Shown one piece after another: positions 518-52,821 of a stretch of 63,607 bases of DNA. This stretch comes from a bacterium (GTDB lineage: Bacteria > JAMCPX01): positions 1-63,607 of the forward strand of contig JBBIVV010000009.1 of the NCBI GenBank assembly GCA_037439545.1, in the 5' to 3' direction. The position numbers were made by a program, and so were the translations under genes. The notes under the pieces were generated by a model that saw only the letters and a program-made list of their open reading frames with translations, made no database searches and was not told the DNA's origin. Each line of letters starts with the position of its first letter. Positions within the stretch are counted from its first letter, which is position 1.

Positions 518-796
518 CTATTTTGTGGTTTGCAGCTCTTCTTCAATTTTTTGTGCAAGAAACATTTTTAATAAAGATTGATAGGGCACATCTCTCTTAT
601 TCGCCAGAAGTTTAAGATGCTCAAAAAGCGAATCCGGCAGCCTGATTGATATTGTCCTCGTGGAAGGTTTGAGATTTGCAAACAGGACCTTCTTGGATTT
701 TGAGTAATCTATATATTCTGTAGAATCATGCTCGGACCAGAACTTAGTTTCCTCTTTTTCAGTTTTAAATTTTGGTATTTCCTTCAATTTGCTCAT
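518..796 (-). CDS. brnA: BrnA/CopG-family antitoxin
   Basis: IPKFKTEKEETKFWSEHDSTEY...TISIRLP...VPYQSLLK signature; overlaps the upstream BrnT gene. Confidence 0.85.
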   Translation of the reverse strand: MSKLKEIPKFKTEKEETKFWSEHDSTEYIDYSKSKKVLFANLKPSTRTISIRLPDSLFEHLKLLANKRDVPYQSLLKMFLAQKIEEELQTTK

Positions 797-1094
797 AAAC
801 TTTCCTTTCTTTTCTGCTCATATCCCGTGCAGATATAAGCCGTATTTTGTTTTTCCTTATGGTGAATACAATAAACAATAGCCTACCCGTGTCGGTCTTG
901 CCTAATATATAATAACGGGCTTCTATGAAAGAATGGGCTGCATCACTTTCTACAACTAACGGGGTATTGAAGAAAACTTCTTCGCACTCGATATGACCGA
1001 CTCTATGCTTCCCCCAATTCTTCGAGATATTTCCTTTATCCCATTCAAATCCTTCAATATTTAAAAATAAATCCTTTATATTCTGTTCTTTCAT
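765..1094 (-). CDS. brnT: BrnT-family (DUF497) ribonuclease toxin
   Basis: FEWDKGN..KN..KH.V...ECEEVF, LFIVFTIR..KIRLISARDMSRKER motifs. Confidence 0.9.
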   Translation of the reverse strand: MKEQNIKDLFLNIEGFEWDKGNISKNWGKHRVGHIECEEVFFNTPLVVESDAAHSFIEARYYILGKTDTGRLLFIVFTIRKNKIRLISARDMSRKERKVYEQIEGNTKI

Positions 1095-1230
1095 ATAAGA
1101 ATGTATATGCCTAATATATACATTTTACAGAATCTGTCAATCAATTTCGTCCGGACGGAACCGCCCGGGTCCCGATGGACCCGCTGGACATAGATAATGG
1201 GGGGGTATGATATATTAAGGCCCATCGAAA

Positions 1231-1440
1231 GTGCAGTGGTCATCAGCAGTGCAAGCCCATCCAAGGTTTCGCGGGGACATTCAGTCAACGGGCTTAAGCA
1301 CGATAAATACAAGTGCCATAACAGGGACGGTCAGATGGAAGTATCGAACCGGCAATGCAGTAAACTCCTCACCGGCGATCGGTGCGGATGGCACGGTCTA
1401 CATCGGGTCTGGTGACGACTATGTATATGCGATTCAGTGA
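1231..1440 (+). pseudogene. PQQ-like beta-propeller repeat protein fragment (single blade)
   Basis: FRGDIQSTGLS...RWKYRTGNAVNSSPAIGADGTVYIGSGDDYVYAIQ is one PQQ/BamB-type repeat; too short for a propeller. Confidence 0.65.
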
Positions 1441-1441
1441 G
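1406..1441 (+). repeat. 36-bp direct repeat, copy 2
   Basis: Identical to 405-440; encodes GSGDDYVYAIQ-stop. Confidence 0.95.
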
Positions 1442-1736
1442 ATGAACATTTTATAAAATAAGAGCAGCTTGCTTCCACGGGGGACGGGAACATAAGAAAA
1501 CAGGGAAAAACCTGACAAACGGCTTTTCCCTGCCGATAACATACAGATGAGAGATCGCAGAGATTTTCTTTAATACCCCATGTTCTTGAGATGCTGAGCC
1601 ATGGAAGGGTTATTATTTATTATAAACGTTGTCAGACCCGATAATCCCGAGCTGTTTTTCGCCCTGTACACGGCACCGATTTCAAGTATTCCGCCCGGCT
1701 CGATGATACAGCCAACCTCCGGGGCTGCACCTATGG

Positions 1737-2960
1737 TCAGGTCCCCGTTCTCTTGGGATTAAAGAATTTTCTTAAATAATAGAGAGAAGGCACAAGCCCC
1801 AGTACTCCTCCGATAAAGATAGATATTCTTACCCCGAAAATATCCGCGATGCCGCCGATAAACAGATTACCAATAGGAGTAACACCCATGAATACGAGAG
1901 AATACACGCTCATTGCCCTGCCTTTCAATGCATCGGGCGTATTGAGCTGTACTGTCGTGTTCGCAAGTGCAGTGAAAATGATTACCCCGAATCCTATGAA
2001 AAAGAGAACCAGCATGGCAGGATACATACCTGAAACAAACGCCAGAAGCATCTGGAATGCGGATAAAATGATTGCCCCCATTATGAGGACGAACGGATTT
2101 GGGCTTCGGCTGCTCCTCAATGCTACGAGTATGGCACCTATGATGGAACCTACACCGAGGGATGACATAAGAAAACCAAAGATTTCAGGGTCGTTATGAA
2201 AAATATATTTTGAGTATACCGGTATGACAACATTAAAGTTGATTGCAAATAACGATACAATAAACATCAGCATGATAACATTAAAAACTATCGTGGTATT
2301 CTTTATATAAATTAGGCCTTCTTTCACACCCTCGATTACATTTTTATTAATCGATCCTCCCGGCACGCCGTCGATATCTATCATAAACAGTCCTATAATA
2401 ACCGGAATAAAGCTGATACCGTTCAGTAAGAATGTCGTTGCAATACCGACCTTTGCTATGAGTAACCCTGCTATGGCCGGTCCTATGAGTCTTGCCAGAT
2501 TAAAGGTCGTGGAATTGAGTGCGATGGCGTTCATCAGCGAGTCCCTGCCTACGAGACTGATCATAAATGCCTGTCTGGCGGGGACATCGAGGCTTGTTGC
2601 CAGACCAAGTAACGATGCCAATATGAGAATATGCCAGTAATTTACAATACCTTGTGCTGTCAGGAGCCAGAGGATAATAGCGAGTACTGCCATGAGGGTC
2701 TGCGTCAATATAATGATGTGCCTTTTGGGAAACCGGTCAACGATGCTTCCTGCAAATATGGATAAGACAAGAATAGGCATGTATTGTGCTGCACCTATCA
2801 GACCGAGGAGAAAAGGAGAATCGGTAAGTTTTAATATGAGCCATGCCTGTCCTATGCTCTGCATCCACGTTCCTATGAGGGATATGGCCTGACCAATCCA
2901 GAATAATCTGAAGTTTCTATATCTTAAAGAAGAAAATATTTTTCTTACTGTATCTATCAT
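1737..2960 (-). CDS. MFS transporter (H+ antiporter/DUF894-like)
   Basis: RNFRLFWIGQAISLIGTWMQ, G.IVDRFPKR motif A, about 12 hydrophobic segments. Confidence 0.9.
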   Translation of the reverse strand: MIDTVRKIFSSLRYRNFRLFWIGQAISLIGTWMQSIGQAWLILKLTDSPFLLGLIGAAQYMPILVLSIFAGSIVDRFPKRHIIILTQTLMAVLAIILWLLTAQGIVNYWHILILASLLGLATSLDVPARQAFMISLVGRDSLMNAIALNSTTFNLARLIGPAIAGLLIAKVGIATTFLLNGISFIPVIIGLFMIDIDGVPGGSINKNVIEGVKEGLIYIKNTTIVFNVIMLMFIVSLFAINFNVVIPVYSKYIFHNDPEIFGFLMSSLGVGSIIGAILVALRSSRSPNPFVLIMGAIILSAFQMLLAFVSGMYPAMLVLFFIGFGVIIFTALANTTVQLNTPDALKGRAMSVYSLVFMGVTPIGNLFIGGIADIFGVRISIFIGGVLGLVPSLYYLRKFFNPKRTGT

Positions 2961-3142
2961 GGGTTTAAGTTATAAGACTCATATAGTAAAGCAACGCCGT
3001 TAACCAGTCAACTCATGGGTTCAAAAAACGTAAAAAAGATTGATTACGATGTATGCATGGAGTGAAGCGGCAGAGGGAGATGATTTTGTTGTTGTCCCAA
3101 AGAAAGGACGGGAATGAACGACTTTTCTATTGCATTTTCAGG

Positions 3143-4669
3143 TCAATATTTATTTTTTGATGCATACACTGCAAAGTTTGCCGCGGTGCCTGTATAGACG
3201 TGCGGCAGGGTTATCATAGGATTTGAGAGGGAGTTGAGCATGTCCGATCCCCTGAGTTTATTGTAATCGATGCTTCGATCCATCAGTACCTTGTTGAATT
3301 CCTCTTTTGCCTTCTTTCTTGCCTCGTAAAGCTTCATCTGTACCCTGCTTTTTACATTGACCTCAGCGTCTCCTGAGGTCTCTATCGAGACAAATATGCT
3401 TTCCGACAGATCATCGGTGACTTTCGACTGCACTCCGTCACTCAGTGTACTGGGCATGCATCCGAACGGCTTTACAGAAACGACCATGTGTGCTTTTTTT
3501 TCTTCAAAAGCCATCCTGTGCTTGCCGACCTCGAGGTGTCCCTCACCGCCGGTTATATGAATGTCGAAGTAGGGCGCGGCATACTGTGCAAGCCTGTTCT
3601 GTGACGGCAGTTTGTGTATCCATCCACCCAGTGCTCTTCTGTAGGTGTTGAAATAAAATTTAAAGAGATGTTTTAAAATAAATATGCCTATCAGTTTTCC
3701 TGCCGACTTCACAGGCTTGATTGTAAAACGTTCCCTTTCTTCAAGAGAGCTGTTCCATAATAGGTAATCTATCCATGTTGAAACCGGCTCTGCTTTTACC
3801 TCTGCACCTTCTGATTCAAGCCATCGCGCAAGCTTGTAGTTACCGTCGCCCTCTGTAGTTTGTGCCCAGAATTCTCCTATGATCTGGACAATAGGTTTGA
3901 CCCTGAGGTAATCGGCCTCGATCTTGCACAGTCTCTCATGGAGCCCGTGTAAGCACTTTCTTATTGAAGCCTTGTTTATCAAGGCACGGTAAAGCCTCTC
4001 TCTGTAGAGAGCTATGACACTGTCCGTCTCACCGGAATTTTTCTCATAAGGTCTTATCCTGTATCCTATCTCATTCAGCATATCCCCGAGGACCAGTGAT
4101 TTTATAAGTTCGGTGTAAAAAGTCCTGTTTGCCTGAATGCCTTTGTCGGATGCTTTATCGTATGAATTCGACTGTTCGAAGGTAAGGATCCTGAAATGTC
4201 CGAATCCGGCATCCTGCAGAGATTTTCTGTATTCCGATTCATACATCCCGAACCTGCACGGGCCGCATGCACCTGCTGTTAAAAATACATATTTATCTTC
4301 GACATCTTTTTTGCCGCTCGTTTTAAGGGCGTTCAGGTGTCTTATAAGATTACCGACAGTGTAGTAGGTGGGGTTACACTGACCGCGGTTGCCGTATTCC
4401 TTGCCTGTCTGGAGCGACTGATTGTCGGGTACCGGCAGGTAATCGGCATTATAACCAAGGCTCTCCAAGGCGCCTTTAATAAGGCGCTCATGATTCAGCG
4501 TAAGCCCGCCGAACAGTATTGTCGTTCTGTTTCTTTGTTCTCTCGTGAAAGGCAGTTCAGTATGCTTTTTATAATGTTTTATGTTTTTCCGGTCAATCAT
4601 AGGTTTCAACCTGTAGTGGGGAATATATTGCACTTGACGTATAATTTTCAGGGAGTGACTCAGGTTCAT
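3143..4669 (-). CDS. 2-hydroxyacyl-CoA dehydratase/reductase-like subunit (PlsR-like)
   Basis: GQCNPTY, GACGPCRFGMY and KPFGCMP cysteine motifs; downstream of the activase gene; start codon uncertain. Confidence 0.75.
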   Translation of the reverse strand: MNLSHSLKIIRQVQYIPHYRLKPMIDRKNIKHYKKHTELPFTREQRNRTTILFGGLTLNHERLIKGALESLGYNADYLPVPDNQSLQTGKEYGNRGQCNPTYYTVGNLIRHLNALKTSGKKDVEDKYVFLTAGACGPCRFGMYESEYRKSLQDAGFGHFRILTFEQSNSYDKASDKGIQANRTFYTELIKSLVLGDMLNEIGYRIRPYEKNSGETDSVIALYRERLYRALINKASIRKCLHGLHERLCKIEADYLRVKPIVQIIGEFWAQTTEGDGNYKLARWLESEGAEVKAEPVSTWIDYLLWNSSLEERERFTIKPVKSAGKLIGIFILKHLFKFYFNTYRRALGGWIHKLPSQNRLAQYAAPYFDIHITGGEGHLEVGKHRMAFEEKKAHMVVSVKPFGCMPSTLSDGVQSKVTDDLSESIFVSIETSGDAEVNVKSRVQMKLYEARKKAKEEFNKVLMDRSIDYNKLRGSDMLNSLSNPMITLPHVYTGTAANFAVYASKNKY

Positions 4670-9493: not shown

Positions 9494-9580
9494 GGAGAGG
9501 TGTCCGAGTGGTTGAAGGAGCACGCCTGGAAAGCTTGTTGGCGCCAAAACGCCACGTGGGTTCGAATCCCACCCTCTCCG
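9494..9580 (+). tRNA. tRNA-Ser(GGA)
   Basis: GGAGAGG/CCTCTCC acceptor stem, CTGGAAA anticodon loop, long variable arm, GTTCGAATCC; CCA not encoded. Confidence 0.92.
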
Positions 9581-9626
9581 TATCATTTATCTCTTCTTTA
9601 CACTATGCAGCTATAAGTGAGATTAA

Positions 9627-9867
9627 CCCGAAAAATGCAATTGGGAAATTTGCTCATTCGCTCAATCCTGCGATCCACCTAAACTATAAAGTGGTTTTGT
9701 TATTTGTGATTTTCAAGTCCTCTGTAAGTTTATATGCACGCACCAGTAGCAGTTGTTCTATCGCTATTCGAAGAATACCTTTGTTTGACGCAGCGACCCT
9801 TCCCGTATCGGGTGGGTACCCCTCGCTCATAGCTCAAACATCCCTATTTACAAATGCATTTTTCAGG
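9627..9867. mobile_element. 241-bp MITE, family B, with TIRs and TTAA flanks
   Basis: Left TTAA|CCCGAAAAATGCAATTG, right CAAATGCATTTTTCAGG|TTAA; internal stem-loop at 9782-9840; the same end recurs at 60756-60771. Confidence 0.7.
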
Positions 9868-11358
9868 TTAAGGAGATGCCCTCATTATATTTATCTTGAG
9901 CCTGCCTACGACCCCGAGAATGTCCATCCAGTTGGTCAGGTCGCCGCTTGCAAGTATGATATGTGTGGCATCGGCAGGGAATTCACCAAATGTAGGGTCA
10001 ACAGGTACCCACCCGTCGAGATAAACAAGCGGCCATGCATGGTAGTAGAAATATCCATCACTCATCAATACAACGCCCATTGCCATCTTCGTCGGAATGC
10101 CGGCTGATCTTGCGAGTGCCGTAAACAGTATGGTATGTGCCTTGCAATCGCCCTCAGGGTTTTTGAGCAGGTCTATGGAACGCGGCAGTGCAACGGTAAA
10201 ACTGTCTCTGACATGTGAATACACCCACTGATTGATCAGCTCTACGGCCTTTTGAGCATCCGTCTCGCCGTGCAGTATGGATTTTGCAGTGTTGATAATA
10301 TCCTGATTGTCTGCATTGATCAGCGAAGAACTCTTAAGCTCCTCTTGCACAGTCAGTCCGTGTATATTTTTTGTGCCTTTATACGGCAGCCTGTAGGTGC
10401 CGATATCCTGTGGCTGCCGGATAGTGATGAGGCTGCCCTGCTGTGTCTGGAATTTAAATAAGGGCAATGTTTCCCTGTCCGATATACCTGCAAGGTAAGC
10501 TTCTAAATATCTTGTACCCGCCGGATGCGTTACCTGCAGCCCTGCCGCCCTGATTGCAGTCGATGAGATAAGATCGACCGGCTCGTTGCCCCATCCCTTT
10601 GTGAGTGCCACGGTCTTTGGTTCGAGTACAGCCCTGAAACCAAGAGGGCTTATTTCTTCCACGGTCTCCCCCTGTGGTGTGACCCACATAGTCTCTTTCA
10701 TGTCCTTTATATTGACCTCGAGCTTGAAGGTATCAACAGGACTGTTCATTATGTTTCTCGATTCCTTGCCAAGTACCTTCACATAAACGGGTAATTCCTT
10801 TTGTATGGTTGGATCAAATATGTGGAAGTTGTATTCAGCCCTGCCGAAGCCGTCTTTCACAATCCGCATGACAATGCCGTCCGGACTCATTACGGGTCCT
10901 TTTAAAGGGATCTGTTGTCCGGTTTCCCCTCCAGGACCTTTAAGATTGATAGAGAGTATGTTGTCCTTAACCTTACCGGCCGCAGCTATTTCTATTGACG
11001 ATGTTTTCAAAGAGAAATCTATGCTTTTTAAGAAGTAATCCCTGTCTGTCGTTGAATCTGCTATTGTCGTTATATCCTTTTGCTGTCCCATAAGCATGAT
11101 CCTCATGAACGTCCTTGTTTTAAAAGTAAACCCATTACCCGACGGCATTATCTCTTCATAATCGTAGCCTATCTTTTTGTTTCCCATGTAAAGTCCCATC
11201 CATTCCGATACAGTGGTTATTTCAGATTTCACTCCGGACGGAGCGGGTGCGAATGTTTCTTCATGCTTTGATCGCAACAGATACACTATACTGACTACCC
11301 ACATAACGCCTATGATTGAGTAGAGAATAATCTTGAACGGTTTTTTGTTCATCTCCAT
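9868..11358 (-). CDS. Membrane-anchored transglutaminase-like domain protein
   Basis: N-terminal TM helix; C-terminal GDCKAH, YHAW and VPVDPT catalytic triad pattern. Confidence 0.88.
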   Translation of the reverse strand: MEMNKKPFKIILYSIIGVMWVVSIVYLLRSKHEETFAPAPSGVKSEITTVSEWMGLYMGNKKIGYDYEEIMPSGNGFTFKTRTFMRIMLMGQQKDITTIADSTTDRDYFLKSIDFSLKTSSIEIAAAGKVKDNILSINLKGPGGETGQQIPLKGPVMSPDGIVMRIVKDGFGRAEYNFHIFDPTIQKELPVYVKVLGKESRNIMNSPVDTFKLEVNIKDMKETMWVTPQGETVEEISPLGFRAVLEPKTVALTKGWGNEPVDLISSTAIRAAGLQVTHPAGTRYLEAYLAGISDRETLPLFKFQTQQGSLITIRQPQDIGTYRLPYKGTKNIHGLTVQEELKSSSLINADNQDIINTAKSILHGETDAQKAVELINQWVYSHVRDSFTVALPRSIDLLKNPEGDCKAHTILFTALARSAGIPTKMAMGVVLMSDGYFYYHAWPLVYLDGWVPVDPTFGEFPADATHIILASGDLTNWMDILGVVGRLKINIMRASP

Positions 11359-11487
11359 ACGACAAAACTACACACTGACGGGTATACAGTCAACCCTGAT
11401 TGAAGCTTTTGACCAGGCGTGCGTGCTCACGGGGTAAAATCGATAAATAACATTGATCACTTCATTTCTGTGTGGGATACTGCATAT

Positions 11488-12624
11488 ATGGAAAGATCAA
11501 GTCCGACAATTATAAAACAACGTGTTGCTTTAAGCTCCGTGGTAGCGAGTGTATTCTTGATAGTCATAAAGCTGGCGGTAGGCCTCATGACAGGTAGTCT
11601 CGGCATTATTTCTGAGGCCATTCATTCGATGCTTGACCTCGGCGCAGCACTCCTTACCTATTTTGCCGTCCGTGTTTCCGACAAGCCCGCTGACGGAGAA
11701 TACAACTATGGGTACGGCAAGTATGAAAGCCTGTCAGCACTGATAGAAACAGGACTGCTCATTGTGACCAGCGTATTGATTATATACAAGGCTGTCGTAA
11801 GATTGTTTGTCGCCCCTGTCGATATAGAAGTAAATGTGATGTCATTCGGTGTTATGATTCTTGCCATCATAGTCGATGCATCAAGGTCAAAGCTTCTTTC
11901 AAAGACGGCAAAAAAATACAACAGCCAGGCACTTGAGGCAGATGCCCTGCATTTTTCAAGTGATATTTTGAGTTCCTCGGTTGTTATTATCGGCTTGATA
12001 AGCACGAGACTTGGTTTTCCGGAGGCTGATCCGGTTTCAGCTATGATTGTTGCAATGCTTGTTCTTATAGCGAGTTATAGACTGGGCAGGAAAACAGTCA
12101 TTATCCTGCTGGATAAAGCGCCTGAAGGGCTTGCAGAAAAGATAAAAGCAAATGCCATGAAGATCAGCGGTGTGACAGGGGTCCATAATATAAGGATTAG
12201 ACACAGCAGTACCAAAATGTTTATCGATATGCACGTTAATATACAGGAAAGTCTGCCGTTTAAGCAGGTTCATGACATTACAGAAAGGATTGAACATGAC
12301 CTTTCTGAACTTGGCTACGATGCAGATGTGGTAATTCATGCAGAGCCGGATGATGATGCTGAAGGATATAAAAGTATTGAAGGCATGATGCAATCGGTAC
12401 CCCGTGTATCCATCGCCGATATAATAAAATCACATGGTGTTAAATTTCACGATCTCATAATACGGCATGCTGCAAAGAGATACATGATAGATTTCCATCT
12501 TGAACTTCCGAAGAACCTTTCTGTCGAGCAGTCTCATAGGATCTGCGATGTATTGGAAGACGACATCAATCGTTCGGTTCCCCATTCGATAGTAAACATC
12601 CATGTAGAACCGCTGCATAAATGA
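11488..12624 (+). CDS. Cation diffusion facilitator (FieF-like) with tandem C-terminal dimerisation domains
   Basis: SEAIHSMLD and ADALHFSSD metal sites, YGYGKYE; two domains ending IHAEP and IHVEP; ATG 11488 preferred over GTG 11419. Confidence 0.9.
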   Translation: MERSSPTIIKQRVALSSVVASVFLIVIKLAVGLMTGSLGIISEAIHSMLDLGAALLTYFAVRVSDKPADGEYNYGYGKYESLSALIETGLLIVTSVLIIYKAVVRLFVAPVDIEVNVMSFGVMILAIIVDASRSKLLSKTAKKYNSQALEADALHFSSDILSSSVVIIGLISTRLGFPEADPVSAMIVAMLVLIASYRLGRKTVIILLDKAPEGLAEKIKANAMKISGVTGVHNIRIRHSSTKMFIDMHVNIQESLPFKQVHDITERIEHDLSELGYDADVVIHAEPDDDAEGYKSIEGMMQSVPRVSIADIIKSHGVKFHDLIIRHAAKRYMIDFHLELPKNLSVEQSHRICDVLEDDINRSVPHSIVNIHVEPLHK

Positions 12625-12697
12625 ACGAAATAATTATTACGATTTGTATATGATAACAGAAAGTGATAAATTATTGCCCGGACTTAAGGAGGTAGTT

Positions 12698-12976
12698 ATG
12701 ATTACGGCATTTGTTCATATATCATGTAAGCCGGAGAAACTCGAGGAACTTGCTGAAGGTATTTCACAGATAGACGGAGTCACTGAAGTTTACTCCATTA
12801 CCGGTGATTATGACCTGCTTGCTATCGTAAGAGTTGCAAATATAGATGAGCTTCCCGGCATAGTCACGAATAATATGCTCAAGAAAGACGGCATAACGAG
12901 GGCAAACACCTCGGTCGGTTTTAAGGTGTATTCGAAGCACAACCTTGACGCAATGTTTTCAATAGGTCTGGATTGA
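12698..12976 (+). CDS. Lrp/AsnC ligand-binding (RAM) domain protein without HTH
   Basis: MITAFV...EVYSITGDYDLLAIVRV; AAGGAGG SD before ATG 12698. Confidence 0.85.
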   Translation: MITAFVHISCKPEKLEELAEGISQIDGVTEVYSITGDYDLLAIVRVANIDELPGIVTNNMLKKDGITRANTSVGFKVYSKHNLDAMFSIGLD

Positions 12977-12980
12977 CGAC

Positions 12981-13733
12981 ATGAAGATAGGCAGATGTCT
13001 TGTGTCCGGGGAAGAACAGTATTGCGTAGTTGATGACCATGAAGTTCATGTACTGTCAGCACCTCCGTTTCAGGACATTGTGTATAGCGGGACAGTTATT
13101 GAGAAAAACGATGCTCGGCTCCTGCCGCCTGTTACACCATCGAAGATAGTTGCCATCGGGCTCAACTACAAGGCACATGCAAAAGAATTCGGCAAGCCAA
13201 TGCCCGATGAGCCGCTTATTTTTATAAAGCCGGCCACTGCAATTATCGGTGACGGGGATGATATCGTATATCCTGAAATGTCAAAGCGTGTCGATTATGA
13301 AGGCGAACTCGCCGTGGTCATAGGCAGGGAGGCAAAAAAGGTAAGCGTGGATCTCGCGGGCGAATATATATTTGGTTATACCATTATGAATGATGTAACC
13401 GCGAGAGATCTTCAGGCAAAGGACGTTCAGTACACGCGGGCAAAGGGATTTGATACATTTGCGCCGATAGGCCCGTGGATAGAAACGGAACTCAACCCCG
13501 GTAACCTCTCTATAAGGACGTATGTAAACGGCATCCTGAAGCAGGATGGAAATACCTCTGATATGCAATTCACAATTAATTCTATTATCCATTTTGTTTC
13601 TCAGATAATGACACTTTTACCGGGAGATGTTATTTCTACAGGTACTCCCCCGGGCATAGGTCCTGTAAATAGAGGAGATACTGTGGAAGTAGAGATTCAA
13701 AGTATAGGCAGACTGCGTAACAAAGTAGTATAA
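12981..13733 (+). CDS. Fumarylacetoacetate hydrolase family protein
   Basis: KIVAIGLNY, DYEGEL, NDVTARDLQ, AKGFDTF, PGDVISTGTP motifs. Confidence 0.93.
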   Translation: MKIGRCLVSGEEQYCVVDDHEVHVLSAPPFQDIVYSGTVIEKNDARLLPPVTPSKIVAIGLNYKAHAKEFGKPMPDEPLIFIKPATAIIGDGDDIVYPEMSKRVDYEGELAVVIGREAKKVSVDLAGEYIFGYTIMNDVTARDLQAKDVQYTRAKGFDTFAPIGPWIETELNPGNLSIRTYVNGILKQDGNTSDMQFTINSIIHFVSQIMTLLPGDVISTGTPPGIGPVNRGDTVEVEIQSIGRLRNKVV

Positions 13734-13869
13734 GAGATATTCTGCGTTAACCCAAAGAAAGACAATTGGGGATCCACATGATTGGCAAGTTCTCCAAACT
13801 GAGGTAAAAGTATTAAAGAAATCATTTGACATTTATTTTTCATATGTTAATAACAAAAATTTACAATGA

Positions 13870-13942
13870 GCTAGCGTAGCTCAATTGGTAGAGCAGCTGA
13901 TTTGTAATCAGCAGGTTAAGGGTTCGAGTCCCCTCGCTAGCT
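13870..13942 (+). tRNA. tRNA-Thr(TGT)
   Basis: Cloverleaf with anticodon arm GCTGA-TTTGTAA-TCAGC. Confidence 0.95.
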
Positions 13943-13979
13943 TTGTAAATTTATTGTAATTATAGTATGTTATACATGG

Positions 13980-14064
13980 GGAGAGGTGCCCGAGTGGCTA
14001 AAGGGAGCAGTCTGTAAAACTGCCGGCCATAGCGCCTACGAAGGTTCGAATCCTTCCCTCTCCA
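13980..14064 (+). tRNA. tRNA-Tyr(GTA)
   Basis: Anticodon arm GCAGT-CTGTAAA-ACTGC, long variable arm. Confidence 0.95.
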
Positions 14065-14107
14065 TTGATTTTAACATTGATTTTATTTGACTTTTATGTT
14101 TTTTTAA

Positions 14108-14180
<73 letters not shown>

Positions 14181-14183
14181 TAT

Positions 14184-14256
<73 letters not shown>

Positions 14257-14326
14257 AAAAAAAGTATGAACTATTGAACTATGTTAATAAATTGTGTGAA
14301 CCATTTTTAAGGAGGTAGAACTAAAG

Positions 14327-15517
<1,191 letters not shown>

Positions 15518-15547
15518 AAAAGCAGGACGTTAACTGGAGAAAGAAAC

Positions 15548-15697
15548 ATGAGAACAATGATAATACTGGCATGCACGGAATGTAAAAATAGAAATTATAC
15601 GAGCGAAAAGAACAAGAAAAATACACCTGATAGGATTGGGCTGAAGAAGTACTGTCCGCACTGCAGGAAACATACCTTGCATAAGGAGACGAAATAG
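15548..15697 (+). CDS. rpmG: 50S ribosomal protein L33 (zinc-ribbon type); absent from the ORF track
   Basis: [49 protein letters not shown]. Confidence 0.97.
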
Positions 15698-15768
15698 GTC
15701 AGTAGCTCAATTGGTAGAGTACCGGTCTCCAAAACCGGTTGTTGGGGGTTCGAGTCCCTCCTGACCTG
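15696..15768 (+). tRNA. tRNA-Trp(CCA)
   Basis: AGGTCAG/CTGACCT acceptor stem, CCGGT-CTCCAAA-ACCGG anticodon arm. Confidence 0.95.
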
Positions 15769-46301: not shown

Positions 46302-48002
46302 TTACAGAAGCCGGGTTAAATCCTTGATCTCTTCAAGGTACGAATTCAAAACCTTCAATTGCTCCAGTGCCTCGGGTTCATTAATAGTTTTGATGTGTTC
46401 TGCCTTTTCCACTGCTTTGAAGATACCGTCAATAACTGCGGCCTTCCTGGTATTCAGTTCGTCGAGAAACTTGTTTTTCGTCGTATCTATTCTTCTGAAA
46501 AGATCATAATGTGCCCTGCCTGTATTCCTGTCGATCTCTTCGTCAATCTTGCTTTCCGTTTGTTTGAGGATATATTTTTCGAAGAATAGTTTGGGCAGTA
46601 TGAACGGAATTGTATCGATGCCCCATGTGATTATGTCGTCGACCTTATACCACAGCCTGCTGTAAGGATCCAACTCTGTAATGTCGGATTGTCTCTGGGA
46701 CCCGATATTAAACAGGGTTGCGGCTGTCAGCTTTATGGAGTTTATCTCGCCATCGACAGACTGTGCATACTTCATGAGGATCTGCGAAAGTTTGTCCGCT
46801 ACGAGTTCTTCCTCATGCTTGAACCATGCTGAAAATACGTCTTCTATGCCCTTTTTTAGATACGAGGTGAATGACTCGAGCATTTTCTTTTTATTTGCTT
46901 TTTCCACCGAAAGGCTGTGCAGGCCGGTTTTAAGTTGTATAGATGCCTGCTTTTTTAATACCTCCATATCCTGCTCGACAATGTTCTTTAATGATCGAAT
47001 CTCACCCTCGAGCAAAAGCTCCATTTCTATGTGTCTTTTTTCGAGCATAGTTGTTTCGCTGTTAAGTACCGCGATCTTATTTTTCAGTTCATCGAGAGGG
47101 GAATGAACCGCATGAATGGTAAGCTGTATATTCAGTGTAAGCTCGTCGGATAGCATACGTGCTTTCATGCGTGTAGAGCCGGCAAGTGTATCGGCTTTGT
47201 CTTTTATGATAAAATGTGCAATCGCTTCCTCGAAGGCTTTAAATCCGCTCTCTTCATATAGCGCCGTATCATGGGCGAGTTTTGCCTCAAGTGCCTTTTT
47301 TGCAGACACGGGGAAGATATGCAGGTCTTTTACCGACAGTTTCTGCTCTATCAATGATCGTGTGAAGTTAAGAGATTCGTGCCATTCGTCGCTACTGACG
47401 GTATCTATTTTATTGAGAAGGAAGAATATCTTGTTTATGTAGGTCTTGATGGAATCAAGATAAGCATACTCAATCTCGCTGATAGGAGGATCAACGGATA
47501 GGACAAATATACCCGCATCCATCCTTGGCAGGGCATTGTAAGCAACGGCAGTATTGTGTTCGAACGTGGAACCGATACCCGGCGTATCTATTAAAACAAT
47601 ACCCTGTTTCAGATACGCTGAAGGATACATCGCCTCGACAAAATCAATGCCTTTGGCATTTCTGGGGTTGTGCCTTTCTGTTACATACTCGGTTATCCCG
47701 TCAAGCGGGACAGCCATTTTTGATCCACTTAAAAAATAAACCTTCGCACTTTTCTGATCGCTGTAGACAAGCTTTGTTATAATAGAGGTCAGCGGTATAA
47801 TTGCAGAGGGGAGGATTTTATCCCCAAGCAATGCGTTGATGGCCGTTGTCTTGCCCCTTTTGAATTGTCCGAGTATAACGAGATTCAAAGACTGAGCCTT
47901 GATCTTTTGCCGCAGCATATCAGCCGTGCTTTTTATATGACCGTTGTCAATAGCGCCTGCTATTTCCGATATCAACTGCAATTCTGTTAAAAGTTCTTCC
48001 AT
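46302..48002 (-). CDS. Bacterial dynamin-like GTPase
   Basis: G1 GQFKRGKTT, G2 PLTS, G3 DTPG, G4 NKID, FPVSA; long helical C-terminus; GGAGA SD 7 nt before ATG 48002 (GTG 48008 is an alternative). Confidence 0.9.
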   Translation of the reverse strand: MEELLTELQLISEIAGAIDNGHIKSTADMLRQKIKAQSLNLVILGQFKRGKTTAINALLGDKILPSAIIPLTSIITKLVYSDQKSAKVYFLSGSKMAVPLDGITEYVTERHNPRNAKGIDFVEAMYPSAYLKQGIVLIDTPGIGSTFEHNTAVAYNALPRMDAGIFVLSVDPPISEIEYAYLDSIKTYINKIFFLLNKIDTVSSDEWHESLNFTRSLIEQKLSVKDLHIFPVSAKKALEAKLAHDTALYEESGFKAFEEAIAHFIIKDKADTLAGSTRMKARMLSDELTLNIQLTIHAVHSPLDELKNKIAVLNSETTMLEKRHIEMELLLEGEIRSLKNIVEQDMEVLKKQASIQLKTGLHSLSVEKANKKKMLESFTSYLKKGIEDVFSAWFKHEEELVADKLSQILMKYAQSVDGEINSIKLTAATLFNIGSQRQSDITELDPYSRLWYKVDDIITWGIDTIPFILPKLFFEKYILKQTESKIDEEIDRNTGRAHYDLFRRIDTTKNKFLDELNTRKAAVIDGIFKAVEKAEHIKTINEPEALEQLKVLNSYLEEIKDLTRLL

Positions 48003-48014
48003 AGCCACATCTCC

Positions 48015-48054
48015 AAAAAAATAACTCCTACCAATGAATCCGGTAGGAGTTATT
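48015..48054 (-). terminator. Riboswitch expression-platform terminator upstream of the dynamin-like gene
   Basis: Minus strand AATAACTCCTACC-GGATTCATT-GGTAGGAGTTATT then a T run; the 5' arm is the aptamer 3' end. Confidence 0.9.
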
Positions 48055-48098
48055 AATCCTTATTGCTTTAAAACGGATGTTAAGCGAACTCCATCGCT
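48043..48098 (-). ncRNA. Fluoride riboswitch (crcB motif), variant, upstream of the dynamin-like gene
   Basis: AGCGATGGAGTTCGCT...ATCC...GGAT TAATAACTCCTAC: P1 AGCG/CGCT, pseudoknot GGAGTT/AACTCC, terminal CTAC. Confidence 0.85.
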
Positions 48099-48104
48099 GA
48101 AGTC

Positions 48105-48133
48105 ATGATATGATCAACGTATGTTCAAGTCAA
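48105..48133 (-). promoter_or_regulatory. sigma70-type promoter of the riboswitch-dynamin unit
   Basis: TTGACT (48133-48128), 17 bp spacer, TATCAT (48110-48105); predicted start lands at the first aptamer base, about 48098. Confidence 0.7.
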
Positions 48134-48400
48134 CCATTCTATGATTTTCTGTGATAGCCAAGTGAAAATGTCAGCAAAAGGTATGGGTGACCCAAAGGTA
48201 GCACCTATACTCGCGGTCAACTCCAAAACTGTTATGACAAAAGTTTTTGTGAAACGTATAAATGCGACCCCATTATTTCCCAGATGCTGTATCGATCTTG
48301 CTTGATCCACCGTGCCCGGTCATGATAATAATTCAGAAGATACAAGAATGCTTAAACACCGAGGCAGGGTTTTATTCCATCGTTGCAAGGAAGGTTCATA

Positions 48401-49096
48401 ATGGAATATAAAGATATAATAAAACGCTTCAGGTCTCTGTCTGATCCGGATGCAGTGGCTGGTATGGTACGGTTCGGGATTAATCCGAAAAATACCTATG
48501 GGGTATCGATACCGGAGCTGAGGAAAATAGCAAAGCAGACGGGGAAAAATCATGATCTAGCACAAAAGCTCTGGTCATCAGGTGTCCATGAGGCACGTAT
48601 ACTTGCAAGCATGGTCGATGCTCCTGCACTGGTCACGTCAAAACAGATGGATGCATGGGCAAAGGACTTCGATTCATGGGACATATGTGACCAGTGCTGC
48701 AGCAACCTTTTTGACAAAACAAAGTTTGCACATAAAAAGATACTGGTCTGGAGCAAGAAGAGAAAAGAATTTGTCAAAAGGGCAGGCTTTACGCTGATGG
48801 CTGTACTGGCAGTGCATGATAAAAAGACGAATGATAAAGAGTTTATCAAATTTCTGTCTGTGATCAAAAGAGAAGCTGTGGATGACAGAAACTTTGTCAA
48901 GAAGGCTGTTAATTGGGCATTAAGACAGATCGGCAAGCGGAATGTCAATCTTAGAAGACTTGCGATAAAAACGGCGGTAGGAATCCACAGGATTGATTCA
49001 AAAAGCGCCAAATGGATTGCTGCTGATGCACTCAGAGAATTGAAAAAAAATAATCCGATTAATGACCCATCGCAGGTAAATCAGTTTTTACTATGA
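48401..49096 (+). CDS. DNA alkylation repair protein (AlkD-like HEAT repeats)
   Basis: GVSIPELRKIAK, FDSWDICDQ, RNFVKKAVNWALRQIGKRN. Confidence 0.9.
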   Translation: MEYKDIIKRFRSLSDPDAVAGMVRFGINPKNTYGVSIPELRKIAKQTGKNHDLAQKLWSSGVHEARILASMVDAPALVTSKQMDAWAKDFDSWDICDQCCSNLFDKTKFAHKKILVWSKKRKEFVKRAGFTLMAVLAVHDKKTNDKEFIKFLSVIKREAVDDRNFVKKAVNWALRQIGKRNVNLRRLAIKTAVGIHRIDSKSAKWIAADALRELKKNNPINDPSQVNQFLL

Positions 49097-49410: not shown

Positions 49411-49451
49411 ATTTAAGCGGTGGATTGTAGTAAATGAAAGGAGAATATGAA

Positions 49452-50369
49452 ATGAATTTTACAAGAACGGATATTGAATTTATCAGTTATGGTGAACGGT
49501 GTACGGCATGGATGTACCGTCCGGAAGCAGGAGATAATATCCCTCTGGTAATCATGGCCCATGGCTTTGGTGCACTCCGGACCTTCGGTCTTGAGCCGTT
49601 TGCCGAAAGATTTGTACGTCAGGGAATGGCGGTTTTAGTGTTTGATTACCGTGGGTTTGGTTCCAGCGAGGGTTATCCCCGCAGTTTGATTTCCCCAAAA
49701 AAACATATTCAGGACTGGCATTCTGCCATAGCCCACGCGAGGAGAATCAGGTGGATTGATCATAGCAAAATTGCTCTTTGGGGAACATCCTACAGCGGCG
49801 GCCATGTCCTGTATGCTGCGGCACAGGACCATGGCATCGCGGCGGTTGTGGCGCAGGTGCCATTCGTGAATGGCTTGTCGTCAAGCTGGAATATGAAAAA
49901 GATGCTCGGCTGGGGGTATGTGGGACGGTGTGCAGTGGCCGGCATGAAGGACCTTTTGCGGATGCTGACGTTCAGGTCACCCTATTATATGCCGACAGTC
50001 GGCAGACCAGGTGAGTTGGCCATACTCTCGACACCGGACTGCTATGATGGATATTTGTCCCTCGTGCCCCAGGCGTACCGCGATTGGGATATAACGACTC
50101 CTGCAAGATCTGTTCTGTATCTTTTGCCCTATTCCCCCAGCAGGATTGTGCGGAAGATTACCTGTCCGTCACTGGTTGTTGCAGGTGAGCTGGACACGTT
50201 AATTCCCTATGCGTTTGTGAAAAAAACCGTTTCGAAGATGCCGGCCGGCCGTTTGGTCGGTCTTCCCTGCGGGCACTTCGGACCCTACAGCGGTGATACC
50301 CTTGAAAAGGTGTCGGATATGGAAAGCGCATTTTTTCTCGAGCATCTTATGGGTTCTGTGAAAAAATAA
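49452..50369 (+). CDS. Alpha/beta fold hydrolase
   Basis: HGFG oxyanion motif, FDYRGFG, GTSYSG nucleophile elbow, C-terminal D and GHF; AGGAG before ATG 49452. Confidence 0.9.
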   Translation: MNFTRTDIEFISYGERCTAWMYRPEAGDNIPLVIMAHGFGALRTFGLEPFAERFVRQGMAVLVFDYRGFGSSEGYPRSLISPKKHIQDWHSAIAHARRIRWIDHSKIALWGTSYSGGHVLYAAAQDHGIAAVVAQVPFVNGLSSSWNMKKMLGWGYVGRCAVAGMKDLLRMLTFRSPYYMPTVGRPGELAILSTPDCYDGYLSLVPQAYRDWDITTPARSVLYLLPYSPSRIVRKITCPSLVVAGELDTLIPYAFVKKTVSKMPAGRLVGLPCGHFGPYSGDTLEKVSDMESAFFLEHLMGSVKK

Positions 50370-50787: not shown

Positions 50788-51147
50788 TCAGGGCGTACCA
50801 AAATTACCCGGGGTATATCTGATTATTTTTGCTCGTTCCTCGGTAATTAGCCCGCCGCAGCCAGCTTTTTCAAATAGGCGATCGACCAGAGGGATAAAAC
50901 CGTTGATCTTTGCCTCAGTATCAACGAGCTCAATAATGACAGGGAGGTCCTCGCTTAGTTCGAGGATCCGGGCCTTATGAATGACGCTTTTTGCCCCATA
51001 ACTTTCAACGCCGCGAAGTACTGTTGCGCCTGCTATACCCGATTCTTTTGCAGTGAGAACGATAACTTCGTATAGGGGCTTTCTATCAACATGATCCGTC
51101 TCACCAATAAAAATCCTCAGAAGTTTACCTTCACCTTCTAATTTCAT
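50788..51147 (-). CDS. DUF190 (PII-like) protein
   Basis: LRIFIGETD, GIAGATVLRG, LSEDLPVIIELVD; typical crcB neighbour. Confidence 0.92.
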   Translation of the reverse strand: MKLEGEGKLLRIFIGETDHVDRKPLYEVIVLTAKESGIAGATVLRGVESYGAKSVIHKARILELSEDLPVIIELVDTEAKINGFIPLVDRLFEKAGCGGLITEERAKIIRYTPGNFGTP

Positions 51148-51157
51148 GAAGCACCTC

Positions 51158-51532
51158 CTAAATAAGTGTTGCTACTATACTGCCAACCCACACAACTATC
51201 AATGCGAGTGTTATTGAAACCATCATATTCAATGCGCCGATAAAAAAAGAACCGCTTCTGAGTAATTTAAATGTCTCATATGAAAATGTGGAAAATGTGG
51301 TAAACCCACCAACAATACCGATGGCGACAAAGGCCCTGATGTCAGGAGCTATCAGGAATTTATCCTCTGCCAGCGTTAAAAAAAATCCGATGATAAAGCT
51401 GCCTGTAATATTAACAAACAATGTACCATAGGGAAAACTGCTGCCCAAGAGTGAGTAGACCCAGCCAGCCATAAGATATCTAAAAACCGATCCTATACCT
51501 CCTCCAATAAAGACAAGCACTGTCTTTATCAT
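51158..51532 (-). CDS. crcB: Fluoride channel Fluc/CrcB
   Basis: GGGIGSVFRY, FPYGTLFVN, GGFTTFSTFSYE. Confidence 0.97.
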   Translation of the reverse strand: MIKTVLVFIGGGIGSVFRYLMAGWVYSLLGSSFPYGTLFVNITGSFIIGFFLTLAEDKFLIAPDIRAFVAIGIVGGFTTFSTFSYETFKLLRSGSFFIGALNMMVSITLALIVVWVGSIVATLI

Positions 51533-51607: not shown

Positions 51608-51647
51608 AAAAAACCCCTGCCATAGCAGACCTCACCATGGTAGGGGT
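51608..51647 (-). terminator. Riboswitch terminator upstream of crcB
   Basis: ACCCCTACCATGG...CTATGGCAGGGGT followed by TTTTT. Confidence 0.85.
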
Positions 51648-51693
51648 CATCAGCTTCGTAGTTCGAAGTAGTTAAAGGCGAACCCCATCGCCT
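51640..51693 (-). ncRNA. Fluoride riboswitch (crcB motif), canonical
   Basis: AGGCGATGGGGTTCGCCTTTAACTACTTCGAACTACGAAGCTGATGACCCCTAC upstream of crcB. Confidence 0.95.
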
Positions 51694-51700
51694 GAAAGCA

Positions 51701-51728
51701 AGTATAGTAACTGTTATCGGACTGTCAA
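51701..51728 (-). promoter_or_regulatory. sigma70-type promoter of the riboswitch-crcB unit
   Basis: TTGACA (51728-51723), 16 bp spacer, TATACT (51706-51701). Confidence 0.8.
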
Positions 51729-51762: not shown

Positions 51763-52821
51763 TCAGTAATTGCTTGGTATTCTGTCTATGGTTTCTGTCA
51801 ATATTTCAAGAGATGGGTCTGAATCATAGGACAGTGAAAGCAATTTTACTCTCCGGAGCAGGCGGGGGATGTAGTGCATGAACTTATCGTTGCCCTTGAC
51901 CAGTTTTATGTATCTGAATCTGCCCGCAGCTTTCAACATACGCTGAATACTCATCAGTTTAAATATGTCCTGAAACCCTGCACCTGCATAAGGGCTCTTT
52001 GAAAGATAATAATCGACCATCTGATCGACAAAATCATCCGTCAATTCAACATAAGCGTCCCTTAACAGGGATACGAGATCATAGTGCGGAGGACCTATGA
52101 GCGCATCCTGAAAATCTATTGTATAAAGTTGCTCTTTGAAATAGAGGATGTTCCTCGAGTGATAGTCCCTGTGAACAAATATACCCGAGTATCTTTCAAA
52201 TAAAACCGAGAGCCTGTGGAACAATCTTTGCAGCTTTGACAATAAAATATGCGGCAGTTCGACCCCGGCTTTTACAATACCGTACTCTATGAAATGATCG
52301 AACTCGAAATCATAAAGATTACTGTTAAACCTGTTCAGCCTTGCATAGCACCACGGGGGTATATGCTCTTCCTTGATCTGAAATTTTACCATCATATCTA
52401 TTGCCTGCTTATAAAGCTCCGGGGACTGCCCTGATTCATTGATGAGGTCACCGAGCAGACTGTCTCCGAGATCATCGAGTATCAATATTCCTTCTCCCTC
52501 ATCATGGTAATGAATTGCCGGCACCCGCACACCAAGGTGGACCAAATATCTCTGGATATTGACGAATGGAAGTTCCTTGAAATCCTTTGAATGCGATGCT
52601 ATCTCCTCTGAAACAATGGCCCTGTCGGATGATGCGTTTACCATAACGACGTAGCTTTTGTCGCTGTCAAGAAAACACCGGTAATAGCTCCTGTTCGAAG
52701 CATCGCCGGCAAGCTTCCTTATGGAGGTAACGTGGGTGAGCTTTGCCTTGTCGAAGACAGCTATTATTCTCTTTTCCGTAGCTTCAGAATTATTGTCCAT
52801 AGGTCGCGCGCTTCCCCTCAT
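51763..52821 (-). CDS. amgK: Phosphotransferase, AmgK-like anomeric MurNAc/GlcNAc kinase
   Basis: LAGDASNRSYYR, HRDYHSRN, IDFQDAL.GP..YDLVSLLRD. Confidence 0.8.
   Translation of the reverse strand: MRGSARPMDNNSEATEKRIIAVFDKAKLTHVTSIRKLAGDASNRSYYRCFLDSDKSYVVMVNASSDRAIVSEEIASHSKDFKELPFVNIQRYLVHLGVRVPAIHYHDEGEGILILDDLGDSLLGDLINESGQSPELYKQAIDMMVKFQIKEEHIPPWCYARLNRFNSNLYDFEFDHFIEYGIVKAGVELPHILLSKLQRLFHRLSVLFERYSGIFVHRDYHSRNILYFKEQLYTIDFQDALIGPPHYDLVSLLRDAYVELTDDFVDQMVDYYLSKSPYAGAGFQDIFKLMSIQRMLKAAGRFRYIKLVKGNDKFMHYIPRLLRRVKLLSLSYDSDPSLEILTETIDRIPSNY

Follow-up and report, generated by a model that had tools for sequence, protein, structure and literature searches.

Why should a gene for a dynamin-like GTPase stand behind a fluoride riboswitch? 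The known defences against fluoride are exporters, proteins of pH and ion homeostasis, and extra copies of fluoride-sensitive enzymes. The riboswitch class itself, which binds fluoride as a Mg2+-fluoride complex, is known from RF01734 units in front of crcB/Fluc, eriC-F, Na+/H+ antiporters, enolase, pyrophosphatase, formate hydrogenlyase and mutS-like genes. The stretch of bacterial DNA analysed here (63,607 nt, hereafter the window) appears to hold a unit that departs from these canonical ones in two ways: it encodes a large GTPase of membrane type rather than an exporter or a fluoride-sensitive enzyme, and its aptamer scores below the Rfam threshold. A first-pass annotation of the window had read this unit as a fluoride riboswitch acting as an ON switch over a stand-alone dynamin-like GTPase, and the core of that reading is supported by the aptamer, by the overlapping terminator and by the enrichment of riboswitches upstream of homologous genes.

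Among the papers searched we found none that links a fluoride riboswitch with a dynamin-like GTPase, although a dynamin or GTPase gene may be tabulated in Weinberg 2010 or in Baker 2012. The passages on dynamins or GTPases in fluoride-riboswitch texts, PMC11139923 and PMC2864571 among them, name no such cargo gene.

Organization of the locus

Read along the minus strand, the unit in the window consists of a promoter-like site, a putative crcB-motif aptamer, an overlapping terminator, a Shine-Dalgarno sequence and the gene for the dynamin-like GTPase (Table 1). Each of these elements, together with the G1 to G4 motifs of the reading frame, was located where the first-pass annotation had placed it, and its description of the gene as standing alone was borne out as well. 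The gene is monocistronic: rplQ and rpoA, downstream, lie on the plus strand and converge on it, and its upstream neighbour is a plus-strand DNA_alkylation gene. A canonical fluoride riboswitch, that of a crcB-DUF190 operon, is found 3.6 kb upstream of the unit. We also considered phage defence or a mobile element as the context of the gene, and dropped this reading, since the neighbours are housekeeping and fluoride-response genes.

Table 1. Features of the dynamin-like unit and of the nearby crcB-DUF190 operon (positions in the window)
Feature	Position	Strand	Basis and remarks
Sigma-70-like promoter, TTGACT-17-TATCAT	48105-48133	-	10/12 consensus matches
Fluoride (crcB-motif) aptamer, putative lineage variant	48037-48107	-	RF01734, 30.5 bits
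Intrinsic terminator: 15-bp stem (48054-48020), 5-nt loop, U-run	48015-48054	-	MFE fold, z -4.45
Shine-Dalgarno GGAG	48011-48014	-	8 nt 5' of the ATG at 48002; sequence reading
Dynamin-like GTPase gene, 566 aa	46302-48002 (stop codon included)	-	Dynamin_N match (Pfam)
Canonical fluoride riboswitch of the crcB-DUF190 operon	51634-51701	-	RF01734, 49.7 bits
crcB	51158-51532	-	Pfam CRCB, 3.2e-28
DUF190	50788-51147	-	Pfam DUF190, 2e-34

Transcription from the promoter-like site would be expected to start about 7 nt 3' of the -10 element, which puts it on the first pair of P1. The number of sites returned by a promoter scan does not by itself exceed chance (4 sites, against 5.3 expected in shuffled sequences); the TTGAC of the -35 element is invariant across all five orthologous leaders.

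The aptamer and the terminator

Only two RF01734 matches occur in the 2.32-Mb genome, one in the dynamin leader and one in the crcB leader. The first-pass annotation had proposed a covariance-model match as a check on the aptamer, and the outcome is for the most part in its favour: the match is significant (E = 8.2e-7 in 301 nt, 1.5e-6 over the whole genome), but its score lies under Rfam's gathering score of 34 bits, which is an operational threshold rather than a structural feature. A default Rfam scan accordingly left the aptamer unlisted, and it was found in permissive mode. Our own covariance model, R1, scores it at 61.6 bits, although R1 was built partly from the same sequence.

The aptamer has the architecture of canonical crcB-motif units, a group that includes the crcB copy in the window, with P1, P3, a pseudoknot and the conserved core. 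P1 is formed by 4 bp, AGCG (48098-48095) with CGCU (48086-48083), and encloses the conserved GAUGG.GUU segment. The pseudoknot joins the P1 loop to the 3' tail through six Watson-Crick pairs, GGAGUU (48092-48087) with AACUCC (48051-48046), and the P3 hairpin pairs AUCC (48078-48075) with GGAU (48059-48056) around a loop of 15 nt. The unpaired core (GAUGG; U.AU.AC..CCUAC) is present with two G-to-A changes, both of which recur among 83 confident matches: A replaces G in UGAU in 15 of them, and before CUCC in 29, where it pairs with U. The J1/3 linker between P1 and P3 is UAAC, shorter than the consensus uuuAACC and between 4 and 9 nt long among the orthologs, a difference that may bear on the fluoride pocket. 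Read from the sequence, the crcB motif is present here in a form particular to the lineage: P1 closes with an A-U pair, P3 is AUCC/GGAU around a long loop, the linker is shortened, and all helices and the conserved core are kept.

Covariation between the two aptamers of the window had been pointed out beforehand and taken as a sign of selection on the fold. The first point is confirmed, as the crcB copy has GGCG/CGCC in P1 and GGGGUU/GACCCC in the pseudoknot where the dynamin copy has AGCG/CGCU and GGAGUU/AACUCC, and the second is supported by the covariation of the helices across the 83 matches. Paired cells make up 97.7% in these matches, and changes on both sides are seen at 12 of the 14 pairs, a result reached by none of 500 shuffles. 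All four P1 pairs covary (99.7% of cells paired), and the pseudoknot, a helix absent from the search model, is paired in 99.6% of cells, with four of its six pairs changed on both sides.

Four orthologs of the same family carry the same aptamer core and score 29.6-33.5 bits with RF01734, also under 34. Across the five orthologous leaders the aptamer core (5' core and 3' strand) and the terminator arms are identical, while loops and spacers differ; the P3 stem, for instance, is conserved and its loop variable. The proteins behind these leaders are only 57-59% identical. The same terminator stem, with different loops, recurs in all five family orthologs.

The 5' arm of the terminator includes the 3' strand of the pseudoknot, and thus the folding of the aptamer and that of the terminator are mutually exclusive. 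Without fluoride, the nascent leader would fold into the 15-bp terminator and transcription would end before the dynamin-like gene. With fluoride on the aptamer, the GGAGUU/AACUCC pseudoknot would sequester the 5' arm of the terminator, allowing RNA polymerase to read through and the GTPase to be made. The same terminator-overlap ON logic is described for the crcB motif in Weinberg 2010 (PMC2864571). We consider it highly probable that the RNA functions as an ON switch through which fluoride controls the dynamin-like gene.

Occurrence of the riboswitch among homologs

The 80 best homolog loci were collected with an alignment as the query, a single-protein query having given no loci. A same-strand fluoride riboswitch lies directly upstream in 62 of the 80, 60 of these by a same-strand match within 400 nt and the other 2 by confirmation with Rfam (43.2 and 36.7 bits). 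Eight further loci have a same-strand riboswitch farther upstream, and in seven of the eight only same-strand genes intervene, with the riboswitch at the head of the operon. Two loci have no upstream DNA, and eight have no riboswitch in the DNA examined; one of the latter, L093, is a clear negative. The enrichment upstream of homologs for which the first-pass annotation had suggested looking is thus present, and it is strong.

Nineteen of 20 sampled homolog loci are confirmed at the Rfam gathering score, and no riboswitch match occurs at the 10 control loci, of which 8 are those of other dynamin paralogs. Among the loci of relatives, Rfam matches lie directly upstream in 6 of 12, two of them above threshold, one in the same genus (50.6 bits) and one in another family (50.3 bits). 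One homolog, 39% identical (in G093), has a tRNA and no riboswitch directly upstream. Riboswitch-linked members are found in every deep branch of the homolog tree, a FastTree reconstruction with SH-like support only and with long-branch warnings for L008, L033, L084 and others. In bacteria and archaea, the family sits behind fluoride riboswitches or in fluoride-response operons far oftener than not.

The neighbouring genes at the homolog loci are typical of the fluoride response and include those for Usp (12 loci), MFS (11), Na+/H+ exchangers (Na_H_Exchanger, 10 plus 4), enolase (5) and, in tandem, DUF190 (4).

The dynamin-like protein

The 566-aa protein matches Dynamin_N at 3.1e-22 (79.8 bits, against a Pfam cut-off of 27) and contains the four G motifs: G1 (GQFKRGKT, 45-52), G2 (T72), G3 (DTPG, 139-142) and G4 (NKID, 197-200). 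Their residues are invariant in the 80 homologs, except for Q46 and F47 of G1, which are nearly so. Its family, of the BDLP/IniA/mitofusin class, is a large one whose members measure about 570-620 aa; 1,759 representatives are counted when E is allowed up to 1e-30.

In the AF2 model (overall pLDDT 83.8), a G domain at about 39-243 is followed by four long helices and a short C-terminal one (254-299, 303-362, 371-430, 471-539 and 542-565) that form a neck and trunk bundle. The loop at the tip of the trunk, 431-470, hydrophobic over about 437-470, is a candidate lipid-interacting loop of low model confidence, with pLDDT below 50 at 437-463. Within the 450-473 stretch, conservation is seen at the hydrophobic positions 450-452, 454, 458, 460 and 469 and also at P470. 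No transmembrane segment was found in the 566-aa protein.

The best match in a profile search is BDLP of Nostoc punctiforme (PDB 2j68/2j69/2w6d; 2j68 at 2.5e-46 over profile positions 16-434), and the search also returned the Campylobacter DLP 5owv and IniA 6j72. BDLP shares with our protein the G domain and the helical neck and trunk layout, but it is about 130 residues longer (695 aa) and has a defined paddle where the protein here has the 40-residue loop of low model confidence. A Foldseek search with the AF2 model gave as its top match IniA of Mycobacterium smegmatis (PDB 6j72/6j73; E 9e-22, TM 0.54), and also BDLP, SynDLP and mitofusins. IniA is a stress-induced dynamin-like protein, induced by cell-wall drugs and having fission activity. 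It is the best structural match, with a profile E-value of 5.9e-31 and a length of 606 aa against 566, but the two are only 15% identical in the structural alignment, the present gene has no iniB or iniC partners, and its inducer would be the ligand of the riboswitch rather than a cell-wall stress regulon. The low identity, the monocistronic context without iniB/iniC and the lack of a second full Dynamin_N match rule out orthology with IniA.

The Campylobacter jejuni DLP1/DLP2 pair (PDB 5owv/5oxf) and DynA of Bacillus subtilis, which is linked to membrane protection under stress, are of the same superfamily. These are hetero-pairs or a fused double dynamin, whereas the gene here is single: a search of its genome, which is 98.3% complete, gave no other full-length Dynamin_N match. 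Most characterised bacterial dynamins act in pairs, and in this respect the protein, which has no partner, is unlike them.

Possible roles of the GTPase

Taking the leader and the protein together, we lean, by a modest degree, toward reading the locus as a monocistronic fluoride-response unit, induced through the riboswitch and making a dedicated membrane-acting GTPase. The protein would then be a dedicated stress effector and not a housekeeping enzyme, acting at the cytoplasmic membrane, where GTP-driven binding, sealing or remodelling may keep the membrane intact under fluoride or HF stress. A membrane-remodelling component was also what the first-pass annotation had suggested first, and it fits the fold. 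For the role in membrane maintenance we would put the chances at about even; what points to it is the resemblance in fold and the low-confidence loop, and these only.

One might instead suppose that the GTPase serves transport, by aiding the assembly, clustering or turnover of Fluc/CrcB, Na+/H+ exchangers or MFS proteins, or the shedding of vesicles, rather than by repairing the bilayer. The frequency of Na_H_Exchanger and MFS genes among its same-strand neighbours is consistent with such a role, as is a locus (G008) in which one riboswitch heads DLP-crcB-DUF190 with 31 nt between the first two genes. Such linkage to the channel is the exception, however, since just 3 of the 96 loci have a CrcB gene; no partner family is shared by every homolog locus, and the gene lies apart from any transporter both here and in three of four full-length family orthologs. 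We regard a role in transport as unlikely, though it is the most credible of the alternatives to membrane maintenance.

Compensation, which the first-pass annotation had offered as a second explanation, is less probable still. GTPases can be trapped by AlF4- and MgF3-, and the riboswitch might merely raise the dose of an enzyme that metal-fluoride complexes inhibit, as has been proposed for enolase and pyrophosphatase. An enolase gene adjoins the homolog in 5 of the 80 loci, and for riboswitch-linked enolase and pyrophosphatase a review (PMC11139923) explains overexpression as counteracting inhibition. Here, however, the gene is a single one, behind a terminator and by default OFF, and the genome yielded no second full-length Dynamin_N match; there is therefore no known constitutive pool to top up. 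Moreover, linkage to the riboswitch is a feature of the whole family rather than of one added copy of some housekeeping gene.

We think it improbable to a greater degree that the aptamer has decayed or been re-tuned, so that the leader no longer senses fluoride and is a plain attenuator or a sensor of something else. The score of 30.5 bits against the required 34, and the departures of the linker and of P3 from the consensus, would fit such a history. Against it, all three helices are intact and departures from the consensus are common among above-threshold matches, the 5' core and 3' strand have stayed identical in five genomes whose proteins have diverged to the extent given above, and homologous genes elsewhere follow riboswitches that do pass the Rfam threshold. 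That a weak covariance-model match below the curated threshold has simply fallen beside an unrelated gene is hardly conceivable, given two matches in 2.32 Mb and a pairing found in 62 of 80 homolog loci and in none of the 10 controls.

Fluoride might also act twice, and we raise this as a long shot. After induction through the riboswitch, a Mg- or Al-fluoride mimic of the transition state would lock the G-domain dimer into a long-lived membrane scaffold or seal, which would last only while fluoride is present. If this were true, the family would amount to a membrane device gated by fluoride and conserved in both bacteria and archaea, and prokaryotic dynamins would have in fluoride their first defined natural trigger.

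Implications

Automatic annotation misses the link between riboswitch and dynamin, because the riboswitches of a whole lineage fall just under the Rfam threshold. If a large and widespread dynamin-like family is indeed controlled by fluoride riboswitches, the response to fluoride would have a further branch at the level of the membrane. The bacterial dynamins, whose physiological roles have so far been mostly unclear, would in turn gain a defined and titratable natural inducer, and with it a stress phenotype.

The leader RNA

The first-pass annotation had listed a promoter, an aptamer, a terminator, an SD and a dynamin-like gene on the minus strand from 48133 to 46302, and all of these were found as described (see table). 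The promoter scan alone is weak evidence, since it returned four sigma-70-like sites in the region against 5.3 in shuffles. The -35 TTGAC is invariant in an alignment of five orthologous leaders, and P1 of the aptamer begins 7 bases past the -10 box. The terminator stem is the minimum-energy fold (z -4.45; 0/200 shuffles equally stable), and its 5' arm contains the 3' strand of the pseudoknot.

Features of the DLP leader and gene, of other genes in the window, and of the DLP-crcB locus L006 (contig C164 of relative G008)
Feature	Position	Strand	Basis or remark
Sigma-70-like promoter site, TTGACT-17-TATCAT	48133-48105	-	10/12 matches, pattern scan
crcB-motif aptamer, variant	48037-48107	-	RF01734, 30.5 bits
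Intrinsic terminator	48054-48015	-	15-bp stem and U-run; pattern scan and minimum-energy fold
SD GGAG	8 nt 5' of ATG 48002	-	read from sequence
DLP ORF, 566 aa	46302-48002	-	ATG at 48002; Dynamin_N 3.1e-22
DNA_alkylation repair protein	48383-49096	+	between riboswitch units
Alpha/beta hydrolase	49434-50369	+	between riboswitch units
APH-family kinase	51763-52821	-	upstream of crcB riboswitch
Six tRNA genes	9494-15768	+	four cluster at 13870-14256
L006 unit	718-3291	-	single variant fluoride riboswitch, 3217-3291, heading operon
L006 DLP	1489-3183	-	
L006 crcB	1083-1457	-	
L006 DUF190	718-1116	-	

A default Rfam scan of the window misses this aptamer and reports only the copy in front of crcB (51634-51701, 49.7 bits). 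With the Fluoride model RF01734, a permissive scan of 301 nt gave it E 8.2e-7, and in the whole 2.32-Mb genome it is one of only two Fluoride matches, with E 1.5e-6; the covariance-model match that the first-pass annotation set as a check therefore exists, although at 30.5 bits it falls below the gathering score of 34. The helices read from the sequence are AGCG/CGCU (P1), GGAGUU/AACUCC (pseudoknot) and AUCC/GGAU (P3). In the copy at crcB, P1 and the pseudoknot read GGCG/CGCC and GGGGUU/GACCCC, so the covariation claimed between the two copies is correct. No helix is broken in the variant, and its low score is attributable to the A-U closing pair, an AU-rich P3 with a long loop, and a short linker.

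Conservation of the variant aptamer

Four full-length orthologs from the same taxonomic family (protein identity 57-59%) all have a Fluoride match directly 5', at 29.6, 32.6, 32.9 and 33.5 bits. Aligning the five leaders shows no differences in the 5' core AGCGAUGGAGUUCGCU, in the stem of P3, in the 3' strand or in either arm of the terminator; the P3 loop, terminator loop, linker and promoter spacer vary. Constant helices with variable loops are the pattern that would be expected under selection on the fold, as had been argued earlier.

In 83 riboswitch matches, of which 81 rows are distinct, 97.7% of the alignment cells are paired and both partners vary in 12 of the 14 pairs, in an alignment that the model fitted to P1 and P3 and among sequences related by descent. 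The covariation score of 0.509 was reached by 0/500 shuffles, which gave 0.252, and compares with 0.09-0.13 for slid partners; the pseudoknot helix, which is absent from the search model, is 99.6% paired. Of the 83 confident matches, 15 have A for G in UGAU and 29 have A for G before CUCC, this second A being paired with the U of GUU. Both departures from the Rfam consensus are ordinary within the class. We regard the RNA as a variant member of a known riboswitch class.

Other variants occur at DLP loci. A second sub-threshold group (L052, L071 at 2284-2364; 27.2 and 27.3 bits) is GC-rich with a long P3 insertion, in records labelled Binatia and delta proteobacterium, and a 104-nt match (L089, L091 at 123-226) has an insertion of about 40 nt replacing the short P3 hairpin.

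Association of the riboswitch with DLP genes

Among 100 relatives, the protein has a match in 13 genomes beyond the window's own. An Rfam Fluoride match lies directly upstream at 6 of 12 relatives' loci. Four of the six belong to the orthologs; the other two belong to a remnant from the same genus (match of 50.6 bits) and to a homolog with 33% identity from a different family (50.3 bits). The six loci with no Rfam Fluoride match are that of G093, where a tRNA lies directly 5' of the homolog, that of a fragment in G003, and four that carry other dynamin paralogs.

Searching with an alignment as query, in a set limited to one genome per species, yielded at least 576 relatives; a covariance model built from eight aptamers was run on the best 80 loci. 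The riboswitch is direct at 62 of these 80: 60 have a same-strand match of at least 20 bits no more than 400 nt from the expected start, and L033 and L079 have Rfam matches of 43.2 and 36.7 bits. At eight more it lies farther upstream; in seven of these the intervening genes are all on the same strand, typically in the order Na+/H+ exchanger, Usp, DLP, with L074 ambiguous. Two loci lack upstream DNA. No riboswitch was found at the other eight, but in seven of them a string of same-strand genes extends up to, or in the direction of, the end of the sequence covered, leaving L093 as the sole clear negative. When 20 of the 60 loci were sampled, Rfam at its gathering score upheld the DLP-adjacent match in 19 and missed it in L052 (27.2 bits). 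The enrichment upstream of homologs that the first-pass annotation looked for is borne out. Ten control loci, eight of them holding other dynamin paralogs, gave no match to our model at E <=1e-4.

In a FastTree phylogeny of 80 rows, with SH-like support only and long-branch warnings raised, riboswitch-linked DLPs are present in every deep branch: methanogen-type archaea, Bacillota, Campylobacterota, Thermodesulfobacteriota, Nitrospirota, Acidobacteriota, Binatota, Atribacterota and Aquificota. Loci with no riboswitch are scattered within positive clades. The tree omits L057, L060 and L070 (ORF calls outside 520-640 aa) and L091, a near-copy of L089; L004/L005 are the same loci as L020/L021.

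The GTPase

The G1-G4 motifs, earlier called intact, are conserved across 80 homologs and, apart from the nearly invariant Q46 and F47 in G1, do not vary at all. The family (1,759 representatives at E <=1e-30) has profile matches to Nostoc BDLP (2.5e-46), IniA (5.9e-31), the Campylobacter DLP pair, SynDLP and mitofusins. An AlphaFold model (pLDDT 83.8, pTM 0.71) predicts a G domain, then four long helices and a short C-terminal helix, for which Foldseek placed IniA first (E 9e-22, TM 0.54) and BDLP second. The protein belongs to the BDLP/IniA class without being the ortholog of any characterised member. Its sequence contains no transmembrane segment. In a 40-residue low-confidence loop of the model, hydrophobic and aromatic positions are conserved and a Leu-Pro is nearly invariant, which would fit, rather than demonstrate, a peripheral membrane-binding tip. 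Dynamin_N has one full match in the genome, which is 98.3% complete; its other matches there are short stretches of P-loop type within ORFs of 297-466 aa.

Gene neighbourhoods

The window's DLP gene stands alone, with rplQ and rpoA converging on it downstream from the plus strand and the plus-strand DNA_alkylation gene upstream. Neither that gene, the alpha/beta hydrolase gene nor the APH-family kinase gene is preceded by a riboswitch.

Neighbours at the 80 best loci were clustered, and cluster representatives were named by Pfam. The most frequent are Usp (12 loci), MFS_1 (11) and Na_H_Exchanger (10 plus 4), followed by prenyltransferase-like (6), enolase (5), tandem DUF190 (4) and HEAT/zinc-ribbon (4) genes; a 2024 review (PMC11139923) gives Na+/H+ antiporters and enolase as common fluoride riboswitch cargoes. 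At six loci (L053, L055, L059, L062, L070, L096), fluoride riboswitches stand back to back on opposite strands, about 100-400 nt apart, one towards the DLP and the other towards a divergent gene, which suggests divergent fluoride-controlled operons. In G008 the DLP-crcB gap is 31 nt, and the GTPase is predicted to be co-transcribed with the fluoride channel.

The window's taxonomic family has 11 Fluoride matches across 7 of 12 genomes. The five sub-threshold ones are all the DLP-linked variant, and the six above threshold precede crcB (G000, G009), a NADHdh-type subunit and MutS_V (G007), and two decayed genes (G001). From the matches in the window genome, the fluoride regulon found there consists of crcB-DUF190 and the GTPase.

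On C18 of G007, canonical riboswitches (L109, L114) precede a formate hydrogenlyase-like NADHdh-type membrane subunit and MutS_V. These are classical cargoes named in 2010: Weinberg 2010 (PMC2864571) gives formate hydrogenlyase alongside mutS and the transport of K+ and Cl-. On C89 of G001, from the window's genus, two canonical riboswitches (L113/L011), scoring 43.6 and 50.6 bits, are separated by 1.4 kb with two small ORFs between them, and each is followed by a short ORF, of which one is hydrophobic, 54 aa long and without a Pfam match and the other is a 129-aa DLP N-terminal remnant; this looks like a decaying fluoride locus.

The new element is the linkage of riboswitch and dynamin. A full-text search, whose scope did not extend to Baker 2012 or to any supplements, found no paper joining a fluoride riboswitch to a dynamin-like GTPase, and the words dynamin and GTPase were not found in two reviews searched for them.

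Proposed mechanism and role

Anatomy and comparison support the leader being a transcription-termination ON switch. Fluoride would favour aptamer folding, which would tie up the 5' arm of the terminator and therefore give readthrough into the DLP gene, whose default state would be OFF. A simple heuristic finds an overlapping terminator in 49 of the 83 riboswitch matches, including all five of the window lineage.

The first-pass annotation had also suggested compensatory overexpression, in which the riboswitch simply raises the amount of DLP. Because the default state would be OFF and a second dynamin was not found in the genome, the need for the DLP seems limited to fluoride stress, in which it would be an effector; this argues against such dose compensation. 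We infer that the DLP probably has a dedicated function in fluoride stress, which, given the predicted fold, would most plausibly be exerted at the membrane.
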